Source: a virus
Taxonomy: Duplodnaviria > Heunggongvirae > Uroviricota > Caudoviricetes
Strand: one strand, 5' to 3'
Virus record (IMG/VR): IMGVR_UViG_3300028832_000129
Coordinates: 11,528 to 75,527 of that record
Length of the DNA stretch: 64,000 bases
Positions 13,199-38,255 of the stretch are shown piece by piece. The number at the start of each line of letters is the position of its first letter. The stretch's first letter is position 1. Under the pieces are notes generated by a model. That model searched no databases. It was given only the letters and a program-made list of their open reading frames with translations, and was not told the DNA's origin. The position numbers were made by a program, and so were the translations under genes.

Positions 13199-14821
13199 AT
13201 GGCACAGATTGAACAAGAACGAATTTCCGCGCTGGATAGCTTGGTTACCCAGTCAGCGGACGGCGTTAACGAGCTCATAGAGTCCACTGTTGAAGCAGCA
13301 AAGTGGGCCATGGCGGTGGACTACATTGTCCCCGATAGTGATACCGCCAACCAGGAAGACTTGGTAGACCAGGGTACAAAGCGTATACCGGTAAGCCGAA
13401 TTGGCTTGCTGACTGATAGCCGTACCGTTCCACAGTCCATGTTACCTCACCAGATGGACGAGATTCTTAATGGACGAATGGTGCATGATACAGGTACCGG
13501 AAAATGGACATTCACCACTACCGTCGACGGGGTGCAGGTGGTATATGTATGCCCTGGTCCCCCGGTAGGAGATGAACGGCGGCCGGACATTAGTACTATA
13601 TACCGGGATGTAAGTGACGAAGACCAGGATGGAAACCCAATCTACACTCAGTATAGATATGTGCCGGATGACAATGCTGATGTTGGAACTGCCTCCGAAA
13701 CAGGGAGTTTCGTTCCTATTCCGAGTGACCTAGTCATGATAAATGGTGCCGGGACGGTAGTATCTGATAACGATGGCTCATACACCAGGGCCGTTGATAT
13801 TGTTATCGGTGCCCCTGCGGCGGAAACCAATACACATAATAGTCTCTTAATCAGCAGTGGCAAACTTTCGCATGCTACGAGTGGTGTGGCTGCCGGTACG
13901 TATCCAACCCCTCCGCAATCGTCTCAGTTGACGTTTGGCGGCACATTCGCCGTAGATGCATTTACCGTTAACTCGACTGGCCATGTTACCGCAGTCACTC
14001 CGTATTCGCTGACTGTGCCTAATACGGCGGCTTCACTATCTACCGAGGGATTGGTAAAGATAGGCAGTACCGATGACATACAAAATATAGGCCAGCAAAA
14101 ATCGGCGGGTACAACGACACCGAGTCCTTATGTAAAGGTTGCCGCCGCCGACCATGTCCATGCAGCATCCCATTTGATTCTGGAAAATATCAATGATTCC
14201 ACCAATTTCCAAAATGGGAGATTGGAATATACGGGTGCTGGTTCGGATATTGAATATAGTTTCAAGAATATTTTGAAGGCTACACTTCCGACTAATGGGC
14301 CGACTGCTGCCGGACAACTGTTGGTCAGCGTCGGAAATTCCGTTGCTAATATGCAGGCCGTCTGGAGAAATCCCGATGATGTATTTGCGCCAGAGTATGC
14401 ATTTGTGAAGGTTGCTAGCGGATGTACGTGTGGTACCTCTCCGGTTACCGTTCCATTCGATACATCAACGGAAACCCATGGCGGTAGCATGACGGTTGCA
14501 CAAACCGAATTTGGCGGGCTGAAGGCAGGCAAGGCATATGTCGTGTGCTTTAACTTTGGGTTCTCACATTCGTCAGCGACAACGTTTATTGAAGATGCCG
14601 TTGTAACAGTACAGACCGGCGCCGATTCCCAGTGGACAAGTGCGGCGGAGTATCGTTATTATCTGGACGGCTCAATTACTGGCGTATCAAACTATATAAA
14701 CGGTTGCATCATATTCTCGGTACCCAATGGTCATACATTAGCGAGACTCCGGCTGAATACAGGCCGGTCAACGTGGAACATTACTACTGACAGTAGCGTA
14801 CAAATTGCAGAGGTTAAGTAG
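13199..14821 (+). CDS. Tail-fibre or receptor-binding-like protein, paralog A, 540 aa.
   Basis: Shares a long collinear block with the next ORF: DIVIGAPAAETNTH...TFGGTF..DAFTVNSTGHVTAVTPYSLTVPNTAASLSTEGLVKIG...QQKSAGTTTPSPYVKVAAADHVH. Moderate GC. Ends with TAG. Confidence 0.55.
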   Translation: MAQIEQERISALDSLVTQSADGVNELIESTVEAAKWAMAVDYIVPDSDTANQEDLVDQGTKRIPVSRIGLLTDSRTVPQSMLPHQMDEILNGRMVHDTGTGKWTFTTTVDGVQVVYVCPGPPVGDERRPDISTIYRDVSDEDQDGNPIYTQYRYVPDDNADVGTASETGSFVPIPSDLVMINGAGTVVSDNDGSYTRAVDIVIGAPAAETNTHNSLLISSGKLSHATSGVAAGTYPTPPQSSQLTFGGTFAVDAFTVNSTGHVTAVTPYSLTVPNTAASLSTEGLVKIGSTDDIQNIGQQKSAGTTTPSPYVKVAAADHVHAASHLILENINDSTNFQNGRLEYTGAGSDIEYSFKNILKATLPTNGPTAAGQLLVSVGNSVANMQAVWRNPDDVFAPEYAFVKVASGCTCGTSPVTVPFDTSTETHGGSMTVAQTEFGGLKAGKAYVVCFNFGFSHSSATTFIEDAVVTVQTGADSQWTSAAEYRYYLDGSITGVSNYINGCIIFSVPNGHTLARLRLNTGRSTWNITTDSSVQIAEVK

Positions 14822-14823
14822 GA

Positions 14824-16374
14824 ATGGACCCGATAATCTACAAGAGAACCCACAAGAGGATACGCGAGCTTAATCAGTTCGAGGAAACTCAGGGTGGAGT
14901 TGACCCAATCGGAACACTGATGGGCTCGTCGGTGGCAAGTAAATGGTGTACAGCATTTGATGCGAGTGATTCATCCGTTGAACCTGATGATTCGTATAGC
15001 GTGCCATTAAGCCGATTGATTCTTCTTAGCCCGAACCGGAAAGTTCCGGCTGCGTTTTTGCCATCCTCGGTTTCTTCCGGCGAACTGCTGGTTACCCGCA
15101 CATATTCAGGTAGCGGCGACCCGAGGGAATGTCTACCTAATGTGGGTGAACAATATTACGGCAACATGAACCTTATCTTTAAGGTGGAAAGAACTGGACA
15201 GCCCGATGCATTTTATAGGTACGCATACACTGATTCCATGGATATACAGGAATGGTATGAAGTATACCATTCGCTATCGGACCGGCATGGGTTCTCTAAC
15301 GGTCAGGGTACAGTTGTTAGCGATACCATAAATCCGTCGACTGGAGCATATCATAGGGAAATTGATATCAATATCGGAACACCGGCTGCACATACGGACA
15401 CTATATTATCGATTACGAGTAGCAGTCCGTATAAGCTCGTGCATACGTTGAGCCAGAACACCAATGTCGATGCACCGGTACCTGCATCCGAGCCTGTGTT
15501 GTCGTTTGGGGGGTCATTATATACCCCAACACTAACTGTTGACAGTACAGGACATGTATCTAGCATAGTGTCGCAATCTTATACTTTGCCGAACACCCCC
15601 GCGGAAAAGGGTACGAACACTGATATTGCCGGTCTTGTTCGGATAGGGAACAGCAGTACATCTATAGGAACCCAGAAATCCGCCGGGCATACATCGGTGG
15701 ACAGTGAGCACCCATATATTCTGGTATCGGCCGCCGACCACAAGCATGATATGGCGAAGCTTGCATTTGTCGACAGCAATGATGACATTTCATATCAGGG
15801 CATGACGGATGTACCTGGTGTGGGAACGATAAGATATGATTTCAACCATATCGTGCAGGCCACGCTGCCAAGTGCCCCATTGTCTGCCGGACAGTTTGTC
15901 CTTACTGCCGAGTCGGCAACGACCCAGTCCAATTATGGAAGTACACGATGGACCACTATCGATAATGCGTTGCCGAACCAAGAGGGTATTGGTTCCGGGA
16001 CGGCTGTAATGCGAACCGTAGCTACTTCGCTTGGGTCGATTGCGCCGTTGGTTCAAGGTGGTATCTATCTGGTTACAATGAACATCATGGTTGAAGTTAC
16101 CGGTGGAGTCGGTGCACAGTCGGTTGCGCCTGTGCCTACGTTGCATGAACTTGAACTGACCATAGGAAACCATGTTGAAAAAATTACAATTCCCGGTTCC
16201 TGGACATGCACTGCACTTCCGAATAGTGGCATGCGATGGCTTGGCATGGCGACATTTATAATGATGGCGGCCGGTACAGCTGCACCAATGTCTGGCCGTA
16301 TGCCGGCACCGGACACCACTTATGATGGCGTATTTAAAGTAACGTGCGGTGCAATAGCCGAGCGTCTCAGGTAG
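14824..16374 (+). CDS. Tail-fibre or receptor-binding-like protein, paralog B, 516 aa.
   Basis: Tandem paralog of 13199..14821: DINIGTPAAHTDT...SFGGSLYTPTLTVDSTGHVSSIVSQSYTLPNTPAEKGTNTDIAGLVRIG...TQKSAGHTSV...ILVSAADHKH. Confidence 0.55.
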   Translation: MDPIIYKRTHKRIRELNQFEETQGGVDPIGTLMGSSVASKWCTAFDASDSSVEPDDSYSVPLSRLILLSPNRKVPAAFLPSSVSSGELLVTRTYSGSGDPRECLPNVGEQYYGNMNLIFKVERTGQPDAFYRYAYTDSMDIQEWYEVYHSLSDRHGFSNGQGTVVSDTINPSTGAYHREIDINIGTPAAHTDTILSITSSSPYKLVHTLSQNTNVDAPVPASEPVLSFGGSLYTPTLTVDSTGHVSSIVSQSYTLPNTPAEKGTNTDIAGLVRIGNSSTSIGTQKSAGHTSVDSEHPYILVSAADHKHDMAKLAFVDSNDDISYQGMTDVPGVGTIRYDFNHIVQATLPSAPLSAGQFVLTAESATTQSNYGSTRWTTIDNALPNQEGIGSGTAVMRTVATSLGSIAPLVQGGIYLVTMNIMVEVTGGVGAQSVAPVPTLHELELTIGNHVEKITIPGSWTCTALPNSGMRWLGMATFIMMAAGTAAPMSGRMPAPDTTYDGVFKVTCGAIAERLR

Positions 16375-22578: not shown

Positions 22579-22893
22579 ATGCTCAGAAACATCGATGTAC
22601 TCCATAGGGCCGTAGTCAAGTCATGCGGGGATGCCCCGGGTTATTTCGCCGAGAGCGTATCGGCCGCGTTCACCGCAATGTTCGAGGATGGAGAGACCAT
22701 CCCGGTAAACGTGGACAACCTCGTCAAGAGCGACGAGGCCGACACCATCCCTGCCCAGCTCAAGAGCGCACAGGATGCGGCAAAGACGGCCGACGACAAG
22801 GTGCGGAACCTCCGGGATACTCTCGGTATTGCATCCAAGGATACGAACGGGGTGACTGGCACTCAGCAGGGGACTACGAATGCAACGGCATAA
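22579..22893 (+). CDS. Hypothetical protein, 104 aa.
   Basis: Intact ORF with a GGGGGA RBS-like sequence upstream. Confidence 0.45.
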   Translation: MLRNIDVLHRAVVKSCGDAPGYFAESVSAAFTAMFEDGETIPVNVDNLVKSDEADTIPAQLKSAQDAAKTADDKVRNLRDTLGIASKDTNGVTGTQQGTTNATA

Positions 22894-23464
22894 CGCCATA
22901 CTCAAGTTCATGGACGACATGTACCGGGAAACCCAGTCCCCGACCGTGCTCGAGGCAGCGAAGATTTACCGGAAGCTGTTCATGGAACAGCAGTTCATGC
23001 CCGCGTCCGCCACCAGGCAGACCCCGGCAATCGACTACAAGGGATTCATGCACGTTGTTCCCCATGCGGCTTCCGGTACGAACCAGCCAGATGTATGTCC
23101 GGCACAGGTGAACACCATCATCAACGGCACTTGCACCAGGGACACCGGCGAGGAAACAGCGAAGGAAAAATGGGAAGTCCCGGACTTTGCCCAGTTCAAG
23201 AAGGGACAGCTCAACAGTGCGCTTCTCCACGGCAGGACTGCAGGTACGCCTACCCCAGCAAACTTCGGGAAGTACAACAACGCAGTCATGGATGAACTTT
23301 CGAAGACCGGCAAGAAGAACCAGCGGGACCGCCTGTTCATGGGTGTCCCGAACTGCACAATGCCGATGCGCTGCGGGTACACGATTACCAATCCTCTGGA
23401 CTACCAGGGAACCGACGTCGGATATGCCGATGGCGGAGGTGGTGCCGGGGGAGCGGCCCAATAA
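22880..23464 (+). CDS. Hypothetical protein, 194 aa.
   Basis: Intact ORF ending at a bidirectional terminator. Confidence 0.5.
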   Translation: MQRHNAILKFMDDMYRETQSPTVLEAAKIYRKLFMEQQFMPASATRQTPAIDYKGFMHVVPHAASGTNQPDVCPAQVNTIINGTCTRDTGEETAKEKWEVPDFAQFKKGQLNSALLHGRTAGTPTPANFGKYNNAVMDELSKTGKKNQRDRLFMGVPNCTMPMRCGYTITNPLDYQGTDVGYADGGGGAGGAAQ

Positions 23465-23471
23465 TTTAAAA

Positions 23472-23500
23472 GGCGGTGGAAATCCACCGCCTTTCTTTTT
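23472..23500. terminator. Bidirectional rho-independent terminator between convergent genes.
   Basis: GGCGGTGGA-aat-TCCACCGCC hairpin flanked by A-run and T-run. Confidence 0.6.
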
Positions 23501-23522: not shown

Positions 23523-24431
23523 TCAACCTGTAATGAATCCAATGAAGTATCGTTTGTTTTCTTCATAATATTTTTCCCATATATCGATAACTGCCTGCAC
23601 ATGTTTCTTTTCTACGTTATCCATCTTATGGATACAATCGGTGTATGGTGATGCGAGTGCAACATTATCGGCTCCTATATCAGCTATTACCTCATATTCG
23701 TTGCTTTTGCCTGCGCGAGCTACCCATTCGGTTAACATATAGTCTGCCCATCCAAGCAAGGTTTTGTTTTCAATCTTGTTGTTTGGGTGGTCCATGCCAG
23801 TATTGAAAGCCAGAATCTTAAGATTTCCATTATATTCTGACCGTTTTAGACCGGCGTTCAGCACGGCGATTGGCGAATTTGCCCAGCATCCACCGTCAAT
23901 ATATGATTGTCCATCCTTTATGACAACGTCAAAATAGGACGGAGCGGCAGTGCTGGTCAGAATAGCCAACCATTTGTCCGTATCGGTATCACCTAAATCC
24001 CATACTTTTTCTACGCTTTTTCCATTGGTGTGTGTAGTTGGAATAAATATAGGTTTTTTCCAATCGGAAACTTTCCCAGTAAACTTAGATTTTAGTATTT
24101 TAATGAGATTAGTGTTGTCATATGTTGGACATGTAGGTTGTACCCGTTTGTACCATGGATATTTTGTGAATATCTTCCCTAGGTTATTGTAATACAGGTC
24201 GAATAGGTCATGCGCTGAATATCCCTCGTCTAGTCCACCCGCAATGATGGCCCCGGTTGATGTACCGGCAAATGCGATTGCAATATCACCCAGCTTTTTG
24301 CCGATGTCCTGTTCGAGCCTACACATGAAGGCAAGTGGGCCGATACCCAGTGCGCCGCCACCGTTTACGCTGATAGCTATATTCTTCATAATTATACCCC
24401 TGTTTTCTTGCAGTTTATTCGGGTGCCGCAT
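23523..24431 (-). CDS. Patatin-like phospholipase (PNPLA family).
   Basis: GGGALGIG oxyanion motif, AGTSTGAIIAG (GxSxG nucleophile elbow) and DGGCWANSP (catalytic DGG). Alternative start at the internal Met (24389). It is the only minus-strand gene here. Confidence 0.75.
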   Translation of the reverse strand: MRHPNKLQENRGIIMKNIAISVNGGGALGIGPLAFMCRLEQDIGKKLGDIAIAFAGTSTGAIIAGGLDEGYSAHDLFDLYYNNLGKIFTKYPWYKRVQPTCPTYDNTNLIKILKSKFTGKVSDWKKPIFIPTTHTNGKSVEKVWDLGDTDTDKWLAILTSTAAPSYFDVVIKDGQSYIDGGCWANSPIAVLNAGLKRSEYNGNLKILAFNTGMDHPNNKIENKTLLGWADYMLTEWVARAGKSNEYEVIADIGADNVALASPYTDCIHKMDNVEKKHVQAVIDIWEKYYEENKRYFIGFITG

Positions 24432-24461
24432 AAACTATGGATATCGAAGTGGACGGTTGCC

Positions 24462-25922
24462 ATGGACGTATTGAGAGAATTGCTGAGTGAAATCCCGGGA
24501 AACACATTGTGCCGCAATGTACTTACCGAGGCATACTGCGCCCTGTTCGAGGACGTGGCCTCAGTAGCCACACACAAGTCCAAGAACGTTATCCGCAGCC
24601 TGTTCCCGCAGCTTGCATCCAGATGGGATGACATTGCCGTGGACGACGCCGGGAACCCCGTGCTGACCATGAGCGGGAAGCAGCAGACATACATCGAGTA
24701 TTTCGAGCGCACAATCAGGAACATGTTCTTCCATGACGGTGCGAACCAGAAGTTCGAACCGGGGGTCACCAGGATTGCATACGGGGAACTCAAGCTGGAG
24801 AATCGTGGACAGGACAGCCGGAAGCTGGCTTCACTCAAGAAGATTGTCAAGCTGATTTCCGAAGGGCACGCCGGCGAGTATGACGGCGACCTCAACGGCA
24901 TGTCCTACGATGAACTGGAGACGCGGTTCGGCACTGTCGTGCAGAAGGCCGACGACGAACTCAAGGAGAAACTCGCATCGGCTGATTACCAGGCAAGCGA
25001 CTACGTAATCAAGGAGATTCCGGATTACAAAAGCGCGACGAAATTCTTCAAGTACACTAACCCGGATTCCCCGTGGTGCATCACCCACATGGAGAACATG
25101 TGGCGTTCGTACACCGCCGACGGGATGAACAGGGTATATTTCGCGTACAGGCCGAACTTCAGGCGGATGAAACCCGTAAAGGGCCCGGACGCGCCGCTAG
25201 ACAGCTACGGATTGTCGCTCATATCCATCATAGTAGACCCGTGGGGCACGCTGCGGGCGGTGACGACCCGGTGGAACCATGCCAACGGCGGTTCGGACCA
25301 GGCGATGGACGCCACCCAGCTGTCCAACGTCCTCGGGGGGAACGTGTTCGAGCTGTGCCCGCCCACGGCAATGCCGGAACGGCATGTCGAGCGCATCGAC
25401 AACGATTCGATACGCATCGGCGACCAGGTATGGATGAGCCACAACCTGCAGATGCGCACGAACAGGAGGCGCGGGATAGTCCACGTCGGCGACGAGACCT
25501 ACTTTACCTGGAATGCCGCAATGGAAGTGGCTGCCGCGTACGGAAACGGCTGGCGGCTCCCTACCATGGACGACTGGGACAAGCTCATAGAGACATGCGG
25601 CGGTTATAAAAAGGCGGGGCTCAACCTCAAGTCGACCGAAGGATGGAGACCGGGCGTCGATGACGAAAACGGAAACGGGTTCGACACGTACGGGTTCGAC
25701 GCGAAACCGGCCGGAAAGTACAACCGCTATCATGGTCGTAGGGGCGTGGGATGTAAGCGGCACTTCGCCTTCTTCTGGACCAGTGACAGGTGTGAAGACA
25801 GTTTCGAGTGGGCCCGCTATGTTGAATTAAATTACCTTGACACTGGGGCCAGTACTAGCATAGGGAAACTCAGTGGTACGGACATGGTCGGACTGTCGGT
25901 CCGTCTTGTCAGGAATGCGTAG
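24462..25922 (+). CDS. FISUMP-domain protein, paralog 1.
   Basis: C-terminus ...YFTWNAAM...GWRLPTMDDWDKLIE..GG..AGLNLKSTEGW..NGNGFDTYGFDAKPAGKY...FFWTSD...GLSVRLVRNA matches the Fibrobacter succinogenes major paralogous (FISUMP) domain. The N-terminal ~300 aa are paralogous to 29042..31648 (RIAYGEL, RWNHAN, ELCPP). The start is moved to the ATG at 24462 to avoid overlap with the patatin gene. Confidence 0.6.
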   Translation: MDVLRELLSEIPGNTLCRNVLTEAYCALFEDVASVATHKSKNVIRSLFPQLASRWDDIAVDDAGNPVLTMSGKQQTYIEYFERTIRNMFFHDGANQKFEPGVTRIAYGELKLENRGQDSRKLASLKKIVKLISEGHAGEYDGDLNGMSYDELETRFGTVVQKADDELKEKLASADYQASDYVIKEIPDYKSATKFFKYTNPDSPWCITHMENMWRSYTADGMNRVYFAYRPNFRRMKPVKGPDAPLDSYGLSLISIIVDPWGTLRAVTTRWNHANGGSDQAMDATQLSNVLGGNVFELCPPTAMPERHVERIDNDSIRIGDQVWMSHNLQMRTNRRRGIVHVGDETYFTWNAAMEVAAAYGNGWRLPTMDDWDKLIETCGGYKKAGLNLKSTEGWRPGVDDENGNGFDTYGFDAKPAGKYNRYHGRRGVGCKRHFAFFWTSDRCEDSFEWARYVELNYLDTGASTSIGKLSGTDMVGLSVRLVRNA

Positions 25923-28631: not shown

Positions 28632-28704
28632 GCGGGAATAGCTCAGTTGGTAGAGCGCGACCTTCCCAAGGTCGATGTCGAGGGTTCGAGCCCCTTTTCC
28701 CGCT
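28632..28704 (+). tRNA. tRNA-Gly(CCC).
   Basis: GCGGGAATAGCTCAGTTGGTAGAGCG..CGACC-TTCCCAA-GGTCG..GGTTCGAGCC..TTCCCGC. Clean cloverleaf. The CCA is not encoded. Confidence 0.85.
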
Positions 28705-28964
28705 CTAACAAGTTGGCGTACATGCGCCGCATCACGCGGAGTTGGCCATTCGAATGTTCCTAGGTTCGAAACTGGGGACAGGAGAGCCACCTAGGGCTCC
28801 GTGAAACGTGCGGGTCGGGCCTGGCGCTGCGCTTGGTTTGATGCTGTCCTGTGCTGTGGCCCTCCGCGAGGAGTCTAAACGGCTTGCGGTGCGGTCGACG
28901 GTGTCGCCTCCGTCGCGGTGCGTGCAAAACCCGGTCTGCACAGATGTTGCGCATGAACGCCAAC

Positions 28965-28980
28965 TTTTTGCTATATTTGG
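28965..28980 (+). promoter_or_regulatory. Phage promoter motif TTTTTGCTATATTTGG.
   Basis: Exact motif ~60 nt upstream of the 29042 gene. Confidence 0.5.
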
Positions 28981-29041
28981 GGTAGGCCATACGTGCCTAC
29001 CCTTTATTATATTGTCAACACCATAACTATCAAGGTTATAA

Positions 29042-31648
29042 ATGAGCGAAAAGGAACTTGGCCCGGGAAGCGAGGGCGACGCATACAGGTACACCAAGAA
29101 GGTGCTTCTTTCCCTTCCGAACTTGAACGAAATCCGCCGCATCTATACCGAGATTGCGTTCAACAGGAATATATCGTCCTGGACCCGTGCATGCTACGAG
29201 GAACTCCGCAGGCAGTTCTTCCGTGACGGCCAGTGCAAGATTAAGTTCGCCCCGGGGCTTGCCCGTATCGCATACGGGGAGCTCCTCTTCGGTACGGGCG
29301 ACGAGGACTTCCGCCAGCTTGCCGACCTCCGCGACTTCGTGCGCATCATCTCTATCGCGCACTTTACAGAATTTACCCGCCACATCGCAATCGACGGCAA
29401 GGAACTCTCGTTCAAGGACCTCGTCGACCGCTTTGGCAGCACCGTGTCCGGTAACTGGAAGGAACTGAAGCGCGAGCTTGGCAAAATCCAGTACGGCCCG
29501 CGTCGATACAAGGTAATCTGGCTGGATTCGTTTGCCACTGCCAACAAGTATTACCAGTACACCGCCCCGCATAACTGGTGCCATCTAGGTTCCAAGAGCA
29601 TGTTCAAGTCGTATTCCTACAGCCGGAAGACCGATTCCAAGGGAAACTCCAGGATTTCCGTGGTGAAGCTGTACCTTGCCGTGCTTCCCGGTTTCGAGAC
29701 GATGACGGAAGACGACCCGCTGTATGGCGAGTCCATGCTCGGCATCGATATCGGTCCCGATGGCCGTCTCATGCACGTGAACAACCGCTGGAACCACGCG
29801 CACGACAATATCGACGAACGCAAGGGCGACAACAAGTATTCCGAGAGGGAACTGTCCGAACTCATGGGCGGCCCGTTCTATAAGCTTTGCCCTCCGTTCA
29901 GCAAGAGGGACTACCAGCACATCGAGAGTGTAATGAAACGCGCCCGCCAGAAGGACAACAGGGTATGCCTCAGCTGGGCAAAGAAGCTCGCCAACAAGAT
30001 AACCAATGCGGTGACTGCAAAGTGCAGTACTCGTGAACGCAAGTTCGTCGACGATAGGGATGGCCGCGCATACCGCACGGCGGTAATCGGTAATCGCGAA
30101 TGGATGCTTGACCCGGTATCCTATATCTCGGTCCCGGATATCCGTGAGAGCACCGGGGTTGCCGACAACCGCAAGGCTCTTGAATATGACTGGTATTGTT
30201 TCGATGAACTGCATTCGAAGAAGGGTCTCCGCTATGAGTCCGAAGGTCGCATCACTGTAGGCAACAGAGGAGTTGTCTATCACCCGGAGGGAGATACTGA
30301 CATCGATATGGATGGGGACATGGTTGAGGGCTGTGTACAGGACGAGGAAATCATTCCGGACCCGGTGTGTCTCAACAAGTTCATGCCGCTTACATCCATT
30401 GACATCGACCGTAACGGTCACGCAAAGGTGTACCTGTCTTCCGACGTGTACAAGATGAGCGACTCCGGCAACTACGACTCGTACGAGAGCCATGCCTATC
30501 AGCAGGCATGCGATAATTACCGTCAATGGCGTGCAGACACAATCGACCCCGGCGAGAACAAGCTGGACAAGGACGGAAAGTATGTCATGTACAGTGACGA
30601 CAATTACTGCGGCGTGTTTGTTGATGAGTACAGCGCCCTTGAGATGATTACCCCGCTTGGCTTTGACAAGACTCGCTGGAAAACTCTCAATGAAGGCAAG
30701 CAGAGGATTCTGGTGAACGACCTGGATGCCGATAGGAACTTTGTATTCTACAGTGCAAGGACTGTGCTGCATGCAATCCCCGCAGGCTGGCGTGTCCCTA
30801 CCTTGTTCGAGTTCTTGGGCATGGCTATTGCGAAGGGAGCCAAGTTCAGGTTCAGCCATGGAATCGGTGTATCCAAGGACGAGAACGCTGTCCTGGTTAC
30901 ACGTGAAGGTGTCGTGTCAAAGGAAGATGCGGTCGATGACCTGAAGGGCCTTGTATTCGAGGAACTTATTGAAGGCAAGATTGAACGCAAGTACGATACC
31001 CAGACGACGAATGCGTTGCGTGAGCGTATCACTGCTGCACCCAGGATAGTTGATGCCGGGCAGGACGCGGATGAAGACATCGAGGAAACCGTTGAAGACC
31101 CGGGAGATACGGACGATGCACAGCAACGGCAGCCGCAGCAAGATGACGGCTTCGGGTTTGACCTCAACTCTGCAGTACCTCCCCTGAATATCCGTCTTCC
31201 GGCTATGGAATTCGCAATGAAAAAGTTCGGGTTCGCATTCCCGGAAGAGATTAGGCAAGAGGCCAAGCCGTTCGCTATTGATGAAGCCACGCCGATGCTT
31301 GCAAGGCCTATCCTCCTGTCTCTCGACGGAGTGGACAAGATGAATGAAACAGAGGTAAAGAAGTTCTGCCGCAAGTTCGGGAAGGATGGTTCCTTCAAGT
31401 ATTGGCATGACGATGACTATACGGAAGAACTGGAAAATGCCGTGCATGACCTTCTTGACGCAGTAGATGCCGAGACTGCACACGCAAATGGTGCGGATGA
31501 TGTCCCAAAGAAACCGTATGCGTGCGCTACCTGGAGCGAATCCGACAATACGTTTACCATTTCGGTAAAGGACCGGTTCGACACGAGCGACAGTTACTTC
31601 ATGCTCTACTGCGTGAAGGACAGCAAGCAACTGATGCCTACCATTTAG
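29042..31648 (+). CDS. FISUMP-domain protein, paralog 2, 868 aa.
   Basis: N-terminal ~300 aa collinear with 24462..25922 (RIAYGELLFG, NNRWNHAHD, KLCPPF). Internal FISUMP-like segment (AGWRVPTLFEFLGMAIAKGAKFRF). Acidic Gln/Asp-rich C-terminal region. Confidence 0.6.
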   Translation: MSEKELGPGSEGDAYRYTKKVLLSLPNLNEIRRIYTEIAFNRNISSWTRACYEELRRQFFRDGQCKIKFAPGLARIAYGELLFGTGDEDFRQLADLRDFVRIISIAHFTEFTRHIAIDGKELSFKDLVDRFGSTVSGNWKELKRELGKIQYGPRRYKVIWLDSFATANKYYQYTAPHNWCHLGSKSMFKSYSYSRKTDSKGNSRISVVKLYLAVLPGFETMTEDDPLYGESMLGIDIGPDGRLMHVNNRWNHAHDNIDERKGDNKYSERELSELMGGPFYKLCPPFSKRDYQHIESVMKRARQKDNRVCLSWAKKLANKITNAVTAKCSTRERKFVDDRDGRAYRTAVIGNREWMLDPVSYISVPDIRESTGVADNRKALEYDWYCFDELHSKKGLRYESEGRITVGNRGVVYHPEGDTDIDMDGDMVEGCVQDEEIIPDPVCLNKFMPLTSIDIDRNGHAKVYLSSDVYKMSDSGNYDSYESHAYQQACDNYRQWRADTIDPGENKLDKDGKYVMYSDDNYCGVFVDEYSALEMITPLGFDKTRWKTLNEGKQRILVNDLDADRNFVFYSARTVLHAIPAGWRVPTLFEFLGMAIAKGAKFRFSHGIGVSKDENAVLVTREGVVSKEDAVDDLKGLVFEELIEGKIERKYDTQTTNALRERITAAPRIVDAGQDADEDIEETVEDPGDTDDAQQRQPQQDDGFGFDLNSAVPPLNIRLPAMEFAMKKFGFAFPEEIRQEAKPFAIDEATPMLARPILLSLDGVDKMNETEVKKFCRKFGKDGSFKYWHDDDYTEELENAVHDLLDAVDAETAHANGADDVPKKPYACATWSESDNTFTISVKDRFDTSDSYFMLYCVKDSKQLMPTI

Positions 31649-31664
31649 TACAAAGGAGTACCAT

Positions 31665-32015
31665 ATGCTTGTATATGTACCGAATTTTATTACCCTATTG
31701 CGACAGAGGTATTCTACTCTGAAGTTGCCTGGCGGCATCCATTATGATAATTCTGCAGTGCTGTGTCGCATGCAGTATGAGGTGCGCCTTGAGAAGAAGG
31801 TAGGCTCGAAAACTATCGTCGTGGAACTCGTGGCAAGATACGGTAAAGTCGAATTCCGGAAGCCGTTCACCGAGGATTTCTTGACAACTGGAGACCCGTC
31901 AAAGGTGATGGAGAAAATCAACGAGTATGCTGACGATGGATACGTCGTGTCGCATCAGACGCTGATGTACGGGGCGTCTGACAGCTGCGCCTATACACCA
32001 ACGAGTAGAATGTAA
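31665..32015 (+). CDS. Hypothetical protein, 116 aa.
   Basis: Intact ORF immediately after the paralog. Confidence 0.45.
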   Translation: MLVYVPNFITLLRQRYSTLKLPGGIHYDNSAVLCRMQYEVRLEKKVGSKTIVVELVARYGKVEFRKPFTEDFLTTGDPSKVMEKINEYADDGYVVSHQTLMYGASDSCAYTPTSRM

Positions 32016-32431
32016 CGAAAATTTTACACATTTTTCTTGCATTTTCCCTTGCCATTTCATTCGTTTTTATCTACTATTGCTATAAACATTACGTCAAAGG
32101 AATTAAAGATGCTAAAGCAACTCAACAATCTGTGCAAATTAACAGCTGCGGCCCAGGACGCACGTTATTTTGGCATTTTGGGTTTCGCAGGAAAAGCGGA
32201 GGCTGATGCAACTTAGTTCCAGGTAGACGAAAAGGTTTACGAGAGACGAAAAGGGCGGTTGCATCAGCAGGCAACCGCCCTTTCCGTTTAACCATTCGGG
32301 GGCGCATGTTCCAAGGTGGCGAATGATGCTGGCAGCATCGTTGAGAAGGATTCGATTTCCTTCGCTTCCATTAAAGCAAGGCTCGAGCAGCCTTGCGGTA
32401 GATTGACAGTTCGGATGCGATATGTTTTATG

Positions 32432-32504
32432 GGCCATTAGCTCAGTTGGTAGAGCGCCTGATTTGCACTCAGGAGGTCATCGGTTCGACCCCGATATGTG
32501 TCCA
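32432..32504 (+). tRNA. tRNA-Ala(TGC)-like. The acceptor stem is imperfect.
   Basis: GGGCCATTAGCTCAGTTGGTAGAGCG CCTGA-TTTGCAC-TCAGG ..ATCGG-TTCGACC-CCGAT. The 3' acceptor ATGTGTC pairs poorly with the 5' GGGCCAT. Preceded by the repeated 20-mer AGATTGACAGTTCGGATGCG. Confidence 0.5.
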
Positions 32505-32595
32505 GTATAATATGGGCTGCTAGAAGCAAGGGTAGCCAGCAACTACCCGATGGGCACTGCCTGGACAGATAGTAATCTATCCGTATTCCTAGGAA

Positions 32596-32697
32596 CCAAC
32601 CGTCGCCGTTGCCGGCGGCAGTGTTCCGACATGATGGGATAAGGACATTACGGGACTGGGGTCCATGCGAGGCCGGTTCGATTCCGGTGCGGTCCAC
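32596..32697 (+). ncRNA. tRNA-like element: canonical T-arm plus 3' acceptor, with the 5' partner unresolved.
   Basis: ...GCCGG-TTCGATT-CCGGT-GCGGTCC-A. No clean complementary 5' acceptor was found by eye. May be a degenerate or split tRNA. Confidence 0.25.
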
Positions 32698-32704
32698 TAT
32701 TTCG

Positions 32705-32775
32705 GGTCATTAGTTCAATGGTAGAATTCCCGGTCCGCATCCGGGGGATACCGGTTCGACCCCGGTATGTATCCA
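32705..32775 (+). tRNA. tRNA with an atypical anticodon loop TCCGCAT (anticodon CGC?). The acceptor stem is imperfect.
   Basis: GGGTCATTAGTTCAATGGTAGAAT..CCCGG-TCCGCAT-CCGGG..ACCGG-TTCGACC-CCGGT-ATGTATC. Shares the same acceptor oddity as 32432. Confidence 0.4.
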
Positions 32776-32791
32776 TTAGTTTGTTTGTATT

Positions 32792-32865
32792 CTCATCTAT
32801 ATCAACTGGTTAGATAGTCGCTCTGATAAGGCGGAGGTTCTTGGTTCGAGTCCAAGGGTGAGAAC
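32792..32865 (+). tRNA. tRNA-Ile(GAT).
   Basis: Acceptor TCTCATC/GGTGAGA, anticodon arm TCGCT-CTGATAA-GGCGG, T-arm CTTGG-TTCGAGT-CCAAG. Confidence 0.75.
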
Positions 32866-32872
32866 TATCATG

Positions 32873-32946
32873 CCACTGTAGCTCAGTCCGGTAGAGCGGG
32901 GGCCTGAAGAGCCCCGCGTCGAAGGTTCGATTCCTCCCGGTGGCAC
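32873..32946 (+). tRNA. tRNA-Phe(GAA).
   Basis: GCCACTGTAGCTCAGTCCGGTAGAGC G GGGGC-CTGAAGA-GCCCC ..GAAGG-TTCGATT-CCTCC-CGGTGGC. Confidence 0.85.
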
Positions 32947-33029
32947 TAAAATATGTTCGACAAATATATGAATGACATAATGAACAAAATTATGTATTTT
33001 TATATAAGGTTTATCGAAGAGTTGACAAT

Positions 33030-33767
33030 ATGAACTATAGACATATTTACTTAAACATTATCTTCCGTGCGCAAAATGATTATTTATCACGGTTAAAATT
33101 GAAGAAACATGGGATGTATTTTGAAAAGCACCATGTTCTCCCGCGGTCATTAGGTGGTAAAAATATCGCAAGTAATATAGTCTTATTGACGGGGAGAGAA
33201 CATTTTATTTGCCATTGGTTGTTGTTTAAAATGTTTAATAAGGGGACTATAGAGAGGAGCAAGATGCTATTTGCTTTATGGTGTATGAAATCGATTGAAC
33301 GCGGTCATACAGGAAGATATATTAATGCGAGAACATATGAATATATTCGGGCCGAGTTTGCGAGTATGGTAGGCCAGCTTAACTCAAAGCTGCAATCAGG
33401 TAGCCAAAATTCGCAATATGGAAAAATATGGTATACTAATGCATACACTGGTGCATCCACGTCATCCATAATTCCGTTAAAATATCCTTGGTATAAAGGC
33501 CGTAGACTGTTTCGCGGGGAAACAATGGTACTATTTAATAAAACCCAGCAATGTAGTATGATTCTGGCCAAACAAATATGGGACTTATTTCATAGTGGAA
33601 ACTACACATCATTTAGTGAGTTTACCAGCATGACTAATTTGCCGTTAAAGCGGCCTGGTATTCTGGCATTATTTAATAAATATGTGCCAATATCACGAAC
33701 TTTATGGAAGGATTCCACTAAGCCAAAACAGTCGGACAGTGCATATGTTGGACGATACTATAAATAA
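33030..33767 (+). CDS. HNH homing endonuclease.
   Basis: EKHHVLPRSLGGKNIASNIVLLTGREHFICH is an HNH motif. The gene sits in an AT-rich islet (32950-33890) inside the tRNA array. Confidence 0.75.
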   Translation: MNYRHIYLNIIFRAQNDYLSRLKLKKHGMYFEKHHVLPRSLGGKNIASNIVLLTGREHFICHWLLFKMFNKGTIERSKMLFALWCMKSIERGHTGRYINARTYEYIRAEFASMVGQLNSKLQSGSQNSQYGKIWYTNAYTGASTSSIIPLKYPWYKGRRLFRGETMVLFNKTQQCSMILAKQIWDLFHSGNYTSFSEFTSMTNLPLKRPGILALFNKYVPISRTLWKDSTKPKQSDSAYVGRYYK

Positions 33768-33892
33768 GAATTCCAGCATTATATAATAGGTATTAATATA
33801 TTTAGGGTGAATGTCACGATGAACGCAGCGTGTCATCCCGTAATACTGACTCGTTTGACTAACCAATATAAGTTTAACCCAGTAATTATTAT

Positions 33893-33965
33893 TCCACCTT
33901 AGCTCAGTTGGTAGAGCACCCGACTGTTAATCGGGTCGTCCCTGGTTCGAGTCCAGGAGGTGGAG
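33893..33965 (+). tRNA. tRNA-Asn(GTT).
   Basis: TCCACCTTAGCTCAGTTGGTAGAGCA CCCGA-CTGTTAA-TCGGG..CCTGG-TTCGAGT-CCAGG-AGGTGGA. Confidence 0.85.
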
Positions 33966-33969
33966 CTAT

Positions 33970-34055
33970 GCCGGTTTCGCCTAGCGGTCAATGGCAGGAG
34001 GCTGTAACCCTCCCGTTCTCACGAACTTCCGGTGGTTCGAATCCATCAGCCGGCA
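33970..34055 (+). tRNA. tRNA-Tyr(GTA), class II with a long variable arm.
   Basis: Acceptor GCCGGTT/AGCCGGC. Anticodon arm GGAGG-CTGTAAC-CCTCC. Variable stem-loop CGTTC-TCAC-GAAC. Confidence 0.8.
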
Positions 34056-34069
34056 CTATATATTCTTAT

Positions 34070-34144
34070 GCGGCATTAGCTCAGTTGGCTTAGAGCGCAA
34101 CCTTGCCATGGTTGAGGTCACGAGTTCGATTCTCGTATGCCGCT
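34070..34144 (+). tRNA. tRNA-Gly(GCC).
   Basis: GCGGCATTAGCTCAGTTGGCTTAGAGCG CAACC-TTGCCAT-GGTTG..ACGAG-TTCGATT-CTCGT-ATGCCGC. Confidence 0.85.
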
Positions 34145-34147
34145 TAC

Positions 34148-34220
34148 TGCCCGTTCGCCAAGTTGGTAAGGCACACGACTCTGACTCGCGCATTCGGTGG
34201 TTCGAGTCCATCACGGGCAA
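34148..34220 (+). tRNA. tRNA-Gln(CTG).
   Basis: Very close to the E. coli tRNA-Gln architecture: TGCCCGTTCGCCAAGTTGGTAAGGCA CACGA-CTCTGAC-TCGCG CATTC GGTGG-TTCGAGT-CCATC ACGGGCA. Confidence 0.75.
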
Positions 34221-34224
34221 CTAC

Positions 34225-34304
34225 CTCGACGTGGGGGAACTGGTAGACCCGCCGGCTTCAGGAGCCGGTGCATTTGCGTGCAAGTCCGAGTCTTGCCGTC
34301 GAGA
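34225..34304 (+). tRNA. tRNA-Leu(CAG).
   Basis: Acceptor CTCGACG/CGTCGAG. Anticodon arm CCGGC-TTCAGGA-GCCGG. T-arm GCAAG-TCCGAGT-CTTGC. Extra arm present. Confidence 0.75.
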
Positions 34305-34317
34305 CTAATGGAAACTC

Positions 34318-34401
34318 CGGCGATTGCTGGAATAGGTAGACAACCCGGTCTTAAAAACCGGGGCACTTGCGTGCGTATCGGTTCGAGCCCGATATCGCCG
34401 A
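34318..34401 (+). tRNA. tRNA-Leu(TAA).
   Basis: Acceptor CGGCGAT/ATCGCCG. Anticodon arm CCCGG-TCTTAAA-CCGGG. Long variable arm. T-arm ATCGG-TTCGAGC-CCGAT. Confidence 0.8.
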
Positions 34402-34485
34402 TAGGAGGTACACACGATGAAGAAGATTCTTAAACGCACCCGATTATGATGGTTGCAGTTGCCATGCTCTTATCAACTGCACTCT

Positions 34486-34557
34486 GCGGGTGTAGCTCAG
34501 AGGAAGAGCAACGTACTTTTAATACGTGGGTCGGGATTTCGAAATTCCCCACCCGCA
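34486..34557 (+). tRNA. tRNA-Lys(TTT).
   Basis: GCGGGTGTAGCTCAGAGGAAGAGCA ACGTA-CTTTTAA-TACGT..TTCGAAA..CACCCGC. Confidence 0.8.
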
Positions 34558-34561
34558 CTAT

Positions 34562-34633
34562 GCGAATATGGTGTAATTGGCAACACGACAGCCCTCCAAG
34601 CTGTAGTTTCCGAATCGTTGTCGGATATTCGCT
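34562..34633 (+). tRNA. tRNA-Gly(TCC) with a non-canonical T-loop.
   Basis: Acceptor GCGAATA/TATTCGC. Anticodon arm ACAGC-CCTCCAA-GCTGT. T-arm TCCGA-ATCGTTG-TCGGA has a perfect stem but an unusual loop. Confidence 0.65.
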
Positions 34634-34639
34634 TATCAT

Positions 34640-34715
34640 CCCCGGGTAGCCGAACTGGCATAGGCGGGCGATTCAAAATCGCCGACATCTGAAGGTTCGA
34701 TTCCTTCTCCGGGGA
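34640..34715 (+). tRNA. tRNA with anticodon CAA (Leu-type anticodon) but a short variable loop, which is atypical.
   Basis: Acceptor CCCCGGG/TCCGGGG. Anticodon arm GGCGA-TTCAAAA-TCGCC. 7-nt variable region. T-arm GAAGG-TTCGATT-CCTTC. Confidence 0.55.
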
Positions 34716-34725
34716 CTAAACGATT

Positions 34726-34799
34726 GGCGGCATAGCTCAATGGATTAGAGCGACAGATTTCTAATCTGTTGGTTCCAAGTTCGAGTCTTGGTGTCGTCA
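34726..34799 (+). tRNA. tRNA-Arg(TCT).
   Basis: GGCGGCATAGCTCAATGGATTAGAGCG ACAGA-TTTCTAA-TCTGT..CCAAG-TTCGAGT-CTTGG-TGTCGTC. Confidence 0.8.
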
Positions 34800-34803
34800 T
34801 AAT

Positions 34804-34874
34804 TGGCTTATGGTGTAGAGGTAGCACGGGTGGTTTTGAGCCATCAGGGCTGGGTTCGAGGCCTGGTTGGCCAA
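34804..34874 (+). tRNA. tRNA-Gln(TTG).
   Basis: Acceptor TGGCTTA/TTGGCCA with one mismatch. Anticodon arm GGTGG-TTTTGAG-CCATC. T-arm CTGGG-TTCGAGG-CCTGG. Confidence 0.6.
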
Positions 34875-34877
34875 TAT

Positions 34878-34959
34878 CCCGCAGTGGCGGAACTGGTAGA
34901 CGCGTGCGCCTTAGGAGCGCATGCCGAAAGGTGTGCAGGTTCGAGTCCTGCCTGCGGGA
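34878..34959 (+). tRNA. tRNA-Leu(TAG).
   Basis: Perfect acceptor CCCGCAG/CTGCGGG. Anticodon arm TGCGC-CTTAGGA-GCGCA. Long variable arm. T-arm GCAGG-TTCGAGT-CCTGC. Confidence 0.85.
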
Positions 34960-34978
34960 CTAAACAAAGGAGGAATAT

Positions 34979-35416
34979 ATGAGAAGACTGTTCATCATTC
35001 GCAAGGACCTGGACTTGTCCAAGGGAAAGCTTTCGGCGATGGTAGCCCATTGCGCCGAAGGTTTCTGGACACGCCTCATCTCCCGAAGTGCGACGAAGGA
35101 AGGCGACTCATACTCCGTCAAGTTCGAACTGGATTCAGCCACGATGGACGAGTATGTCCGCGGGCTGTTCGTTAAGACCGTGTGCGAGGCGAAGAACCTC
35201 ACCCACCTCATGAAGGTGGAGGAAGTCGCCAAGGGGTTCGGCCTTGTCGAGAATGTAGACTACGGCTTCATCGACGACGCGTGTCTTACCGAGCTTACCC
35301 CGGAGTCGACCGACGAGAACGGCAACGGCTACTGTAGGGTGGGCATCTGGTTCAGGCCGCTGCCGGACGACGTGAGCCATGCCCTCAGCAGGAAGTACCA
35401 GCTTTTCCGGGGATGA
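34979..35416 (+). CDS. Peptidyl-tRNA hydrolase, PTH2 family.
   Basis: Strong AAAGGAGGAATATATG RBS. N-terminus RLFIIRKDLDLSKGKLSAMVAHCAEG matches the Pth2 signature (..vvR.Dl.mgkGKiaAQ.aHAa). Collinear mid and C-terminal blocks. Embedded between tRNA genes. Confidence 0.7.
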   Translation: MRRLFIIRKDLDLSKGKLSAMVAHCAEGFWTRLISRSATKEGDSYSVKFELDSATMDEYVRGLFVKTVCEAKNLTHLMKVEEVAKGFGLVENVDYGFIDDACLTELTPESTDENGNGYCRVGIWFRPLPDDVSHALSRKYQLFRG

Positions 35417-35425
35417 CCCGGGATA

Positions 35426-35507
35426 TGTCGGGGTGGTGGAATTGGTAGACGCGCTGGTCTGAGAGGCCAGTGGGGAGACCCGTGCAGGTTCAAGTCCTGT
35501 TCCCGAC
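35426..35507 (+). tRNA. tRNA-Leu(GAG).
   Basis: Acceptor GTCGGGG/TCCCGAC. Anticodon arm CTGGT-CTGAGAG-GCCAG. Long variable arm TGGGGAGACCCGTG. T-arm GCAGG-TTCAAGT-CCTGT. Confidence 0.85.
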
Positions 35508-35513
35508 ACTATA

Positions 35514-35587
35514 CGCACTCGTAGCCAAGTGGATTAAGGCGGGGGCCTGCAAAGCCCCCATGCGGGGGTTCGAGTCCCTCCGAGTGC
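35514..35587 (+). tRNA. tRNA-Cys(GCA).
   Basis: GCACTCGTAGCCAAGTGGATTAAGGCG GGGGC-CTGCAAA-GCCCC..GGGGG-TTCGAGT-CCCTC-CGAGTGC. Confidence 0.85.
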
Positions 35588-35629
35588 TCTATTTGACCAT
35601 GTTTAGCAGAAAGGACTCCACTCGGGTCG

Positions 35630-35645
35630 ATTTTTGCTATATTTG
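35630..35645 (+). promoter_or_regulatory. Phage promoter motif TTTTTGCTATATTTGG.
   Basis: Exact motif at the start of a ~450-nt ORF-free structured region. Confidence 0.5.
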
Positions 35646-35703
35646 GTTAGCAAGAATTTCGTGCCAAGATATAAACAAAAACCACCAGGTTGACGTTTTT
35701 GCA

Positions 35704-35720
35704 GAAAATTGCTATATTTG
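35704..35720 (+). promoter_or_regulatory. Phage promoter motif AAAATTGCTATATTTGG.
   Basis: Second motif copy 60 nt downstream of the first. Followed by the repeated 20-mer AGATTGACAGTTCGGATGCG at 35751. Confidence 0.5.
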
Positions 35721-36088
35721 GTACACCGGGAAGCCCGTGAGGTTCCCCAGAAGATTGACAGTTCGGATGCGTTTCCTTTGCAGTTCGGGTTAAACTGCGC
35801 GTTGCAACCAACGATAGGTTGCTCGCATTTTGAAGATTTTACGAAATCTTACCCCGGCGGGAGGCGTCCCGCCCGAAGCCACGCGCTTTGGCGTGGTGGA
35901 ATACCTTTAGCATAAACGTGAGTGCGCCCGGGTTCGCAACCGGGAGGTGTCTTCTGCTCAGGAAGGCAAGGGAAATTAACTAATGAGTTCGGCGTGAGCC
36001 GGGACGGGCGGACGTATAGGGCTAGTTCCATTGCCCTTCTCCTTTTTGGTTGTGTCGAGGTCCCCCGTCCCGCTCGCGCCGTTCGCAT

Positions 36089-36161
36089 GGCGATGTCGTC
36101 TAGAGGCCTAGGACACAGGATTTTCATTCCTGGAACTCGGGTTCGAATCCCGGCATCGCTA
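36089..36161 (+). tRNA. tRNA-Glu(TTC).
   Basis: Glu-type D-arm TCGTCTAGAGGCCTAGGAC. Anticodon arm CAGGA-TTTTCAT-TCCTG. T-arm TCGGG-TTCGAAT-CCCGG. Acceptor GGCGATG/CATCGCT with G1·U72. Confidence 0.75.
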
Positions 36162-36169
36162 CTAATCAT

Positions 36170-36242
36170 CGCGGGATGGAGCAGTTGGTAGCTCGCGAGG
36201 CCCATAACCTCGAGGTCGTCGGTTCGAGTCCGACTCCCGCTA
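36170..36242 (+). tRNA. tRNA-Met(CAT), initiator-like.
   Basis: CGCGGGATGGAGCAGTTGGTAGCTCG CGAGG-CCCATAA-CCTCG AGGTC GTCGG-TTCGAGT-CCGAC TCCCGCT. Closely parallels E. coli tRNA-fMet, including an unpaired position 1-72. Confidence 0.75.
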
Positions 36243-36250
36243 CGAAACAT

Positions 36251-36355
36251 TGCCAAATGGCGGAAAGTGCATCGACGATGCCGTTAGACGCAGGGGAATC
36301 TAAGTCCCCGGCCCTCGCGCGAAAGGGTGTCCAGGTTCGAGTCCTGGTTTGGTAA
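36251..36355 (+). tRNA. Atypical long tRNA-like gene with a CUA (amber-reading) anticodon arm.
   Basis: Acceptor TGCCAAA/TTTGGTA (7 bp incl. G·U). T-arm CCAGG-TTCGAGT-CCTGG. Perfect anticodon arm GGGGA-ATCTAAG-TCCCC (anticodon CTA at 36300-36302). A ~16-nt palindromic hairpin (GCATCGACGATGC) is inserted in the D-region. Total ~105 nt. Confidence 0.4.
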
Positions 36356-36380
36356 CTATGATTTTGCCGTCGCTAAGACT

Positions 36381-36454: not shown

Positions 36455-36579
36455 GTTGATTGCGGCGGAAGTGCCGGGAAGACGTCCCCGGCGCGGCGCT
36501 ATTAAGTCATTTTCGGATTAGGGCCCCGACGCACCAGCAAAACCGTTTGGTACCTATAGAAAATGACCGCCGTTCCCAT

Positions 36580-37348: not shown

Positions 37349-37371
37349 CTATATTACCGTAGGAGATTTCA

Positions 37372-38232: not shown

Positions 38233-38255
38233 TGACAAATAAAATTTTGGCGTAA

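Follow-up and report, generated by a model that had tools for sequence, protein, structure and literature searches.

A candidate acyl hydrolase from a Fibrobacter/huge-phage patatin subfamily, encoded in the genome of an uncultivated huge phage

The 64,000-nucleotide stretch of DNA analysed in this study (positions 11,528 to 75,527 of the IMG/VR virus record IMGVR_UViG_3300028832_000129, Caudoviricetes; hereafter the window) is a fragment of the genome of an uncultivated huge phage, and carries a patatin-like gene on its minus strand. With fair confidence, we explain the gene as encoding a stand-alone, soluble and catalytically competent acyl hydrolase of a patatin subfamily found in Fibrobacter and huge phages, which was exchanged between phages and hosts more than once and was recently reinserted as a moron-like unit. 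The subfamily, the host-phage exchange and the recent insertion in the lineage of the window are new relative to an earlier note on this DNA, prepared from the nucleotide sequence alone, whose suggestions that the gene product is CapV-like, ExoU-like, a decoy or a lysis factor remained unsupported. The annotation as patatin is correct, and the gene, though real, is an accessory gene of a fairly ordinary kind.

The window gene list contains a genuine minus-strand open reading frame (ORF) at 23523..24431, corresponding to 302 amino acids (aa). In all of the 120 closest homologues (57–88% identity over ~289 aa), the start is the second methionine (MKNIAISV...). Because the homologues begin at the position of Met15, the coding sequence (CDS) is likely 23523..24389; the gene probably starts at 24389 and gives a 288-aa product, and the segment 24390..24431 is probably a 5' untranslated region rather than a coding extension. 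The features of the gene are as follows.

23523..24389, minus strand: patatin-family acyl hydrolase CDS (predicted activity), 288 aa plus stop, soluble
24390..24431, minus strand: possible 14-codon N-terminal extension from the ATG at 24431, the start used in the JGI gene call
24345..24362, minus strand: GGGALG glycine-rich oxyanion motif, residues 10–15, from translation and alignment
24252..24266, minus strand: GTSTG nucleophile elbow with Ser44, aligned with GTSIG/GTSVG (Ser58) of CapV
23988..24011, minus strand: EKVWDLGD, family-specific conserved strand-loop, residues 127–134, at the position of the loop of CapV that contacts cyclic GMP-AMP (cGAMP)
23889..23897, minus strand: DGG motif with predicted catalytic Asp165, aligned with Asp192 of AbCapV

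The protein matched the Pfam family Patatin (PF01734) over profile positions 2–189 of 191 (E 7.6e-16; 59.3 bits against a cut-off of 27.7), a sequence similarity far beyond chance, and was assigned to the alpha/beta/alpha patatin fold. GGGALG, GTSTG and DGG were all invariant in a 45-sequence family alignment, as were E127, K128, D131 and D134 of EKVWDLGD, and HMMER alignments placed the three catalytic motifs in line with GGG, Ser58 and Asp192 of the solved CapV chains. The complete catalytic set described in the earlier note is present, invariant and alignable, and the alignment check proposed there for the catalytic Ser and Asp came out in favour of both residues. Sequence-based predictions gave neither a signal peptide nor a transmembrane segment, indicating a soluble protein, with an isoelectric point (pI) of 6.2. 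Purifying selection was evident from the comparison of the loci L001 and L002, which differed by 119 synonymous and 35 non-synonymous codon changes over 289 codons. As part of our joint best explanation, the product is predicted, again with fair confidence, to act as a stand-alone patatin acyl hydrolase with a competent Ser44-Asp165 dyad.

The glycine-rich motif requires one correction. The earlier note gave it as GGGxxG, of which GGG is present as described; its exact form is GGGxLG, and the Lys/Arg found in canonical phospholipase motifs (GGGx[K/R]G) is lacking. Leu14 was invariant in the 45-sequence alignment; the motif was detected in 112 close homologues, of which 110 had Leu at this position. 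Of the 120 close homologues, 100 carry GGGALG and 10 a different GGGxLG variant, and nearly all Fibrobacter and close viral copies that we fetched likewise had Leu at the Lys/Arg position. An exhaustive HMMER search of 1.84 billion representatives revealed a narrow family, with scores above 280 bits for ~10 clusters and E-values below 1e-30 for 45 representatives, embedded in 3,504 patatins below 1e-10. In the next-nearest relatives (~285 aa), Lys/Arg is likewise replaced with a hydrophobic L, M, W or F, and more distant ones revert to GGGxRG or GGGxKG. By these sequence features, the phage patatin belongs to a subfamily specific to Fibrobacter and huge phages and marked by GGGALG.

A hydrophobic residue at this position is also seen in neutral lipases of the ATGL/PNPLA2 type. 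The glycine motif of ATGL is GCGFLG, with a hydrophobic residue where phospholipases have Lys/Arg; besides this motif of the GxGxxG form, ATGL is characterised by its lipid-droplet context and its co-activator CGI-58. No close sequence relationship between ATGL and the phage patatin was seen, and the common trait is a lead only. By analogy, Leu in place of Arg/Lys suggests a substrate bound independently of a phosphate head-group, or else a lysolipid or another acyl ester.

Homologues of the phage patatin are numerous (413 in the databases) and are distributed over both phages and bacteria. A scan of IMG/VR recovered ~50 homologues with 45–88% identity on viral contigs. The closest relatives reside on IMG/VR viral contigs of 220–422 kb and on metagenomic contigs of 150–466 kb, the latter carrying phage-like genes for TnpB, T4 RNA ligase, ClpP, dUTPase and thymidylate kinase; samples and titles of metagenome-assembled genomes (MAGs) indicated rumen and gut habitats. 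Large contigs with the gene include ena:ERZ27297813 k141_760999 (466 kb), IMGVR_UViG_3300028914_000001 (422 kb) and IMGVR_UViG_3300028832_000001 (416 kb). Clustering of neighbouring ORFs distinguished at least eight different syntenies around the phage homologues, such as ClpP...patatin...dUTPase, sigma-like/HSP20-like-patatin, SprT-like-patatin-DUF4422 glycosyltransferases and patatin-helicase. In most viral contigs, whose genome GC ranges from 30 to 57%, the GC content at third codon positions (GC3) of the patatin gene equals that of its flanks, and since GC3 tracks the flanks in this way, the patatin gene is an old, ameliorated resident of the phage group. Huge-phage contigs with patatin (L088, L090 and L086) were placed in MAGs under the labels Bacteroidaceae (317 kb), Methanobrevibacter (173 kb) and Prevotella; these labels look like binning errors contaminating public MAGs, as the synteny is identical to that of IMG/VR viral contigs. 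Apparent N-terminal fusions of patatin (345–479 aa; L033, L036–L038 and L088) were rejected as artefacts of longest-ORF calling, which overlap a SprT-like gene on the other strand.

On the bacterial side, a scan of GTDB with one genome per species gave 39 loci. Nearly all members of the group with 44–53% identity to the phage patatin (~34 loci) came from MAGs classified as Fibrobacter or Fibrobacterales. The Fibrobacter copies are chromosomal and lie among housekeeping genes: one is located on a 650-kb contig beside genes for GH8, polysaccharide deacetylase, an MFS sugar transporter and IleRS, and in the cultured Fibrobacter sp. UWB13 the gene, on a 2.3-Mb contig, has PFOR on one side and GlgC/NifU/PurH on the other. 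In six Fibrobacter genomes (L098, L099, L101, L105, L106 and L114; ~9000–9950), the patatin gene is divergent from a gene for an LpxL-like lipid A acyltransferase (Lip_A_acyltrans, 27.8 bits). This recurrent neighbour hints, through guilt by association, at a role in envelope acyl-lipid turnover. In L098 and L101, the patatin gene is followed by a gene for a ~1050-aa protein without a Pfam match (cluster c51), and a protein of similar size is found in L099. None of the Fibrobacter contexts inspected was a defence island.

A neighbour-joining (NJ) tree recovered two Fibrobacter clades in 100 and 99 of 100 bootstraps, and monophyly of all host copies in none of the 100; one host clade groups among phage sequences. 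As the host copies are non-monophyletic, at least two phage-host exchanges are implied. With its chromosomal host homologues and intermixed phylogeny, the gene qualifies as host-related, similar to auxiliary metabolic genes. The host of the phage is probably Fibrobacter.

In the lineage of the window, the gene appears to have moved recently. The window and two sister phages (L002 and L006) formed one clade with 100% support, nested near phages with the ClpP/dUTPase context. In these three genomes, patatin sits between a gene for a 194-aa protein and that for DNA ligase, a synteny new in comparison with the nearest clade. The remainder of the slot varies, holding a Fib_succ_major (FISUMP) gene in the window, an unrelated gene for a 237-aa protein in L002 and nothing in L006. 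The surroundings of the gene in the window are as follows.

22880..23464, plus strand: convergent neighbour, 194 aa, without a family match, kept in the sister phages
23469..23494, no strand assigned: bidirectional intrinsic-terminator-like hairpin, 11-bp stem with 7 G-C pairs, 4-nt loop
24390..24461, no strand assigned: divergent intergenic region of 72 bp from the patatin ATG to the Fib_succ_major ATG, presumed promoter region
24462..25922, plus strand: Fib_succ_major (FISUMP) gene, divergent neighbour, Pfam PF09603, ATG at 24462

From ~18.3 to 28 kb of the window, patatin is the sole minus-strand gene, all other genes called there being on the plus strand. Its stop faces the stop of the gene for the 194-aa protein across the hairpin, which has T-runs on both strands and is common to the two convergent genes. 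The layout is therefore as the earlier note described it, namely a single minus-strand gene between a bidirectional terminator and the start of a FISUMP gene. The Fib_succ_major domain was found in only one of the 66 window ORFs scanned, and the FISUMP gene is not at this site in either sister phage. We infer that the promoter of the patatin gene lies in 24390..24461; a scan of this region for the sigma-70 consensus, with promoter rules of Fibrobacter falling outside its scope, gave no convincing minus-strand site.

The base composition backs the idea, already raised in the earlier note, that the layout is that of an acquired gene. The patatin gene has a GC content of 0.42 and a GC3 of 0.41, against a GC3 of 0.70–0.85 for the six genes around it, and the stretch of low GC matches the CDS in extent. 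The same contrast in GC3 was seen in L006 (0.46 versus 0.68), and a smaller one in L002 (0.59 versus 0.74). Located between backbone genes with its own terminator, in opposite orientation and with deviant GC3, the gene shows the pattern of a moron, and fits a recent arrival, by insertion or relocation, from a relative with lower GC. Other window genes with low GC3 lie at 13199–16374, 33030–33767, 37372–38232 and 50089–51357 (GC3 0.47, 0.48, 0.37, 0.40 and 0.52, versus ~0.7–0.85). The genome is a compositional mosaic, in which patatin is not the only likely import. The two ORFs in the first of these stretches, 13199–14821 and 14824–16374, are tandem paralogues of the same cluster (c52).

The genomic contexts bear on the proposal that the enzyme assists lysis or egress, i.e., that the lipase attacks the inner or outer membrane late in infection and aids the release of very large virions, as do the LysB-type lipases of mycobacteriophages. 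In favour of this proposal, the catalytic set is intact and conserved over many huge phages under purifying selection, activated relatives of CapV are known to rupture membranes (PMC12480259), and the only matches in deposited phage genomes were the patatins of Wolbachia phage WO. Nevertheless, no gene for an endolysin, holin or spanin neighbours patatin in the window or in any homologue context inspected. The neighbours are instead genes for DNA ligase, ClpP, a sigma-like factor, a helicase, a SprT-like protein, DUF4422 glycosyltransferases, dUTPase and CCA-adding enzyme. Homologues placed uniformly in lysis cassettes, the second refuting outcome considered in the earlier note, were accordingly not seen. 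In addition, the protein lacks both a signal peptide and a membrane anchor, and the host carries the same enzyme without lysing. We thus regard a lysis function, one of the options listed in the earlier note, as quite unlikely.

The resemblance to CapV, the patatin-like effector of the cyclic oligonucleotide-based antiphage signalling system (CBASS), demands closer consideration. Our references were AbCapV (PDB 8zr9/9jeh and 9kh6/9kh7) and the NCBIfam equivalog NF041079 (CBASS_lipase), which has a cut-off of 200 bits. The phage patatin matched CBASS_lipase with E 4.7e-27, but with only 95.1 bits. Accordingly, the hidden Markov model search suggested by the earlier note gave a split result, with Pfam Patatin above its cut-off and the CapV equivalog below. 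The CapV chains in PDB matched the profile of the phage family at E 1e-18, whereas the similarity was far weaker for the plant patatin Pat17 (PDB 1oxw/4pk9; E 3.5e-6) and the catalytic domain of iPLA2-beta (6aun; E 1.1e-5). Both Pat17 and iPLA2-beta carry the canonical GGGx[R/K]G motif.

The partner gene expected of a CapV was not found. No cyclase was among the 12 families matched by PADLOC across 66 ORFs spanning the whole 64-kb window, Pfam scans detected no SMODS or CD-NTase in 30 genes adjoining the phage or Fibrobacter homologues, and the precomputed Pfam labels of five further contexts included no cyclase. PADLOC was also run on 128 neighbour proteins with the best 25 of 119 families by member count, mostly methyltransferase models, a subset that gives no proof of the absence of a cyclase. 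The cyclic-nucleotide partner that the earlier note had envisaged was accordingly not detected in the window or beside the homologues checked.

The residues that serve CapV are altered as well. Arg21 of AbCapV faces the phosphate of the lipid, and activity is nearly abolished by the R21A substitution; cGAMP is contacted by F147, K149, D159, E207 and R279; and the surface is described as strongly basic (PMC12480259). The phage patatin has the invariant Leu in place of the essential Arg21. In a profile alignment, the F147–D159 segment of AbCapV corresponds to EKVWDLGD: F147 is replaced with Val and K149 with an invariant Asp, D159 is kept, and seven loop residues of AbCapV (TPHNPMF) are deleted in the phage patatin family. 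E207 and R279 fall outside the sequence alignment. Compared with the solved CapV chains, the phage patatin lacks ~55–75 residues, most of them C-terminal; it stops ~35 positions short of the end of the PADLOC profile, and its pI of 6.2 indicates an acidic to neutral protein, in contrast to the basic surface of AbCapV. As judged from sequence comparison, the phage patatin is not a CBASS CapV, because (i) no cyclase partner was found in the 64 kb or next to the homologues checked, (ii) the phosphate-binding Arg is lacking, and (iii) part of the cGAMP pocket is gone. Of the link to CapV drawn in the earlier note, the closeness in sequence stands and the CapV-type toxin does not.

Several points weigh against the explanation that we favour, a host-type acyl hydrolase acting on its own. 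CapV is the nearest characterised relative by sequence, and two PADLOC models labelled 'Effector: Phospholipase' matched with low E-values (PDLC00758, 1.7e-33; PDLC00757, 2.2e-31). The scan for partner genes covered 64 kb of a genome of probably 200–450 kb. The EKVWDLGD loop, located at the ligand site of CapV, is among the most conserved non-catalytic motifs, which could, by analogy with CapV, imply a regulated rather than a constitutive activity. The argument from Leu to the substrate is an analogy with ATGL-type lipases drawn from general knowledge, and it is an assumption that the phage enzyme does the same reaction as the host enzyme. Finally, the deep nodes of the NJ tree, on which the direction of transfer and the deep branching order depend, had bootstrap support of 12–39%.

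Alternatively, the protein may be a signal-gated toxin of CapV-like design, auto-inhibited until a small-molecule or protein signal (not necessarily cGAMP) triggers oligomerisation and membrane destruction, and serving superinfection exclusion, inter-phage conflict or abortive infection. CapV-type models were the best matches in PADLOC, NCBIfam and PDB alike, EKVWDLGD is invariant at the place of the CapV ligand loop, the gene is a moron-like unit, and many patatin enzymes need an activator (PMC12871566). In one lineage, moreover, the patatin gene comes directly after a Tad3-like gene. The score of 95 bits is, however, far below the equivalog cut-off, no cyclase was seen among the window ORFs or the adjoining genes examined, and the changes described above (Leu for Arg21, Asp for Lys149, seven loop residues lost, and a shorter protein that ends early in the profile) also weigh against it. 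The host orthologues lie among housekeeping genes, not in defence islands, and the adjacency to Tad3 is limited to the one lineage. Overall, with every tested feature specific to CapV missing, a gated toxin appears unlikely to us.

As for that lineage, the gene directly upstream of patatin in L004 (7651–8451) and L005 (7192–7992) matched PF25185 Tad3, an inhibitor of Type I Thoeris (E 1.2e-16; 61 bits against a cut-off of 27). The Tad3-like gene comes after a ClpX-like AAA+ gene, on a related huge-phage contig binned as Fibrobacter sp. (GCA_024399065.1). We considered this adjacency as a sign of an anti-defence island and rejected it, as it was confined to L004/L005, and neither the window nor any of the other 120 loci has a homologue of the Tad3-like gene.

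It is attractive to speculate that the patatins of Fibrobacter and huge phages are a class derived from CapV, in which another trigger took the place of cyclic-dinucleotide sensing, so that they act as conditional lipid-destroying switches retargeted to a non-phospholipid by the Leu; we hold this to be improbable. If it is the case, EKVWDLGD might bind a different ligand or a protein, and the phage would have in its copy a timed or conditional switch that destroys membranes or lipids, for instance to act on phage competitors or to shut down the host in a programmed way.

The earlier note also raised the idea of a counter-defence decoy. Such a decoy or sponge would be a CapV look-alike that soaks up cyclic-nucleotide alarm signals or poisons the assembly of a host patatin effector. 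Besides the resemblance to CapV and the Tad3-like neighbour in one lineage, the host homologues with 44–53% identity make co-assembly conceivable. This idea is nonetheless highly improbable: none of the catalytic residues varies across more than 100 sequences, and they are under purifying selection, which is not expected of a decoy, the residues with which CapV contacts its ligand are not conserved, and the host homologues have no defence context.

The ExoU-like reading finds no better footing. The secreted toxins ExoU and VipD have the patatin catalytic core in common with the phage protein, but they are large multidomain proteins with a C-terminal targeting or activator-binding domain and are secreted through type III or type IV secretion systems, none of which applies to the phage patatin. 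More comparable in architecture are other virus-encoded patatins. PHROG 25573, a stand-alone patatin, matched at E 7.7e-19; the patatin of Wolbachia phage WO is also stand-alone and has 27% identity; and that of Catovirus CTV1, a giant eukaryotic virus, matched the phage patatin with a TMq of 0.84. These distant viral patatins (20–27% identity) belong to other hosts and other genome contexts, and those fetched carry the canonical GGGx[R/K]G. A tblastn search of 50,697 phage records returned only the patatins of Wolbachia phage WO, at 27% identity, and searches of the literature on Fibrobacter megaphages, Fibrobacter patatin and phage-encoded patatin found nothing specific.

Concerning the phage itself, megablast of the 8 kb around patatin against the 50,697 deposited phage records gave no match, and the phage is hence not among the deposited genomes. 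The window encodes 33 tRNA genes and a transfer-messenger RNA (tmRNA) between 28.6 and 42.8 kb (28632–42799), as well as NAD-dependent DNA ligase, CCA-adding enzyme, PTH2 and many HNH endonucleases; the tRNA and tmRNA genes, together with the viral contigs of the close relatives, mark the genome as phage-like. The tRNA array covers most amino acids and is interspersed with small ORFs and HNH endonuclease genes. The tmRNA lies at 38777–39136 and has the tag ADNAFAYAVAA; a second, overlapping permuted tmRNA called by ARAGORN is doubtful. Pfam families in the window include SPFH/Band 7 (E 1e-24), Peptidase_M48, family-2 glycosyltransferase, RRXRR (E 1e-59), DUF932 and a DnaJ-type zinc finger. Of these, the SPFH and M48 proteins are membrane-associated and could have a bearing on remodelling of the envelope. 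Within 10 kb of patatin, three related huge-phage contigs (L002 1–730, L003 1–302 and L004 1–557) carry genes similar to TnpB/Cas12f (OrfB_IS605, Cas12f1-like_TNB).

If the patatin is a host-type acyl hydrolase exchanged between Fibrobacter and its phages, the phage would express its own copy of a cytoplasmic lipid deacylase of the host during infection. The enzyme would cleave ester-linked acyl chains from the host envelope or from neutral or lyso-lipids, and host lipids would be remodelled or dismantled to the benefit of the phage in a long infection. The substrate, the timing and the benefit to the phage are what we infer in this scenario.

Patatins are widespread among viruses as different as phage WO and the giant viruses of eukaryotes, and none of these viral patatins has an established role. 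The present case shows that a strong match to a 'CBASS effector' model is not in itself an indication of a function in defence or counter-defence; a protein should be called CapV only after its cyclase partner, the Arg in GGGxRG and its ligand loop have been checked. The subfamily described here is abundant in huge phages of the rumen and gut, and is common to Fibrobacter, a key fibre-degrading genus. The host enzyme and the phage enzyme together offer a tractable pair with which to ask which lipid reaction a huge phage must bring along.

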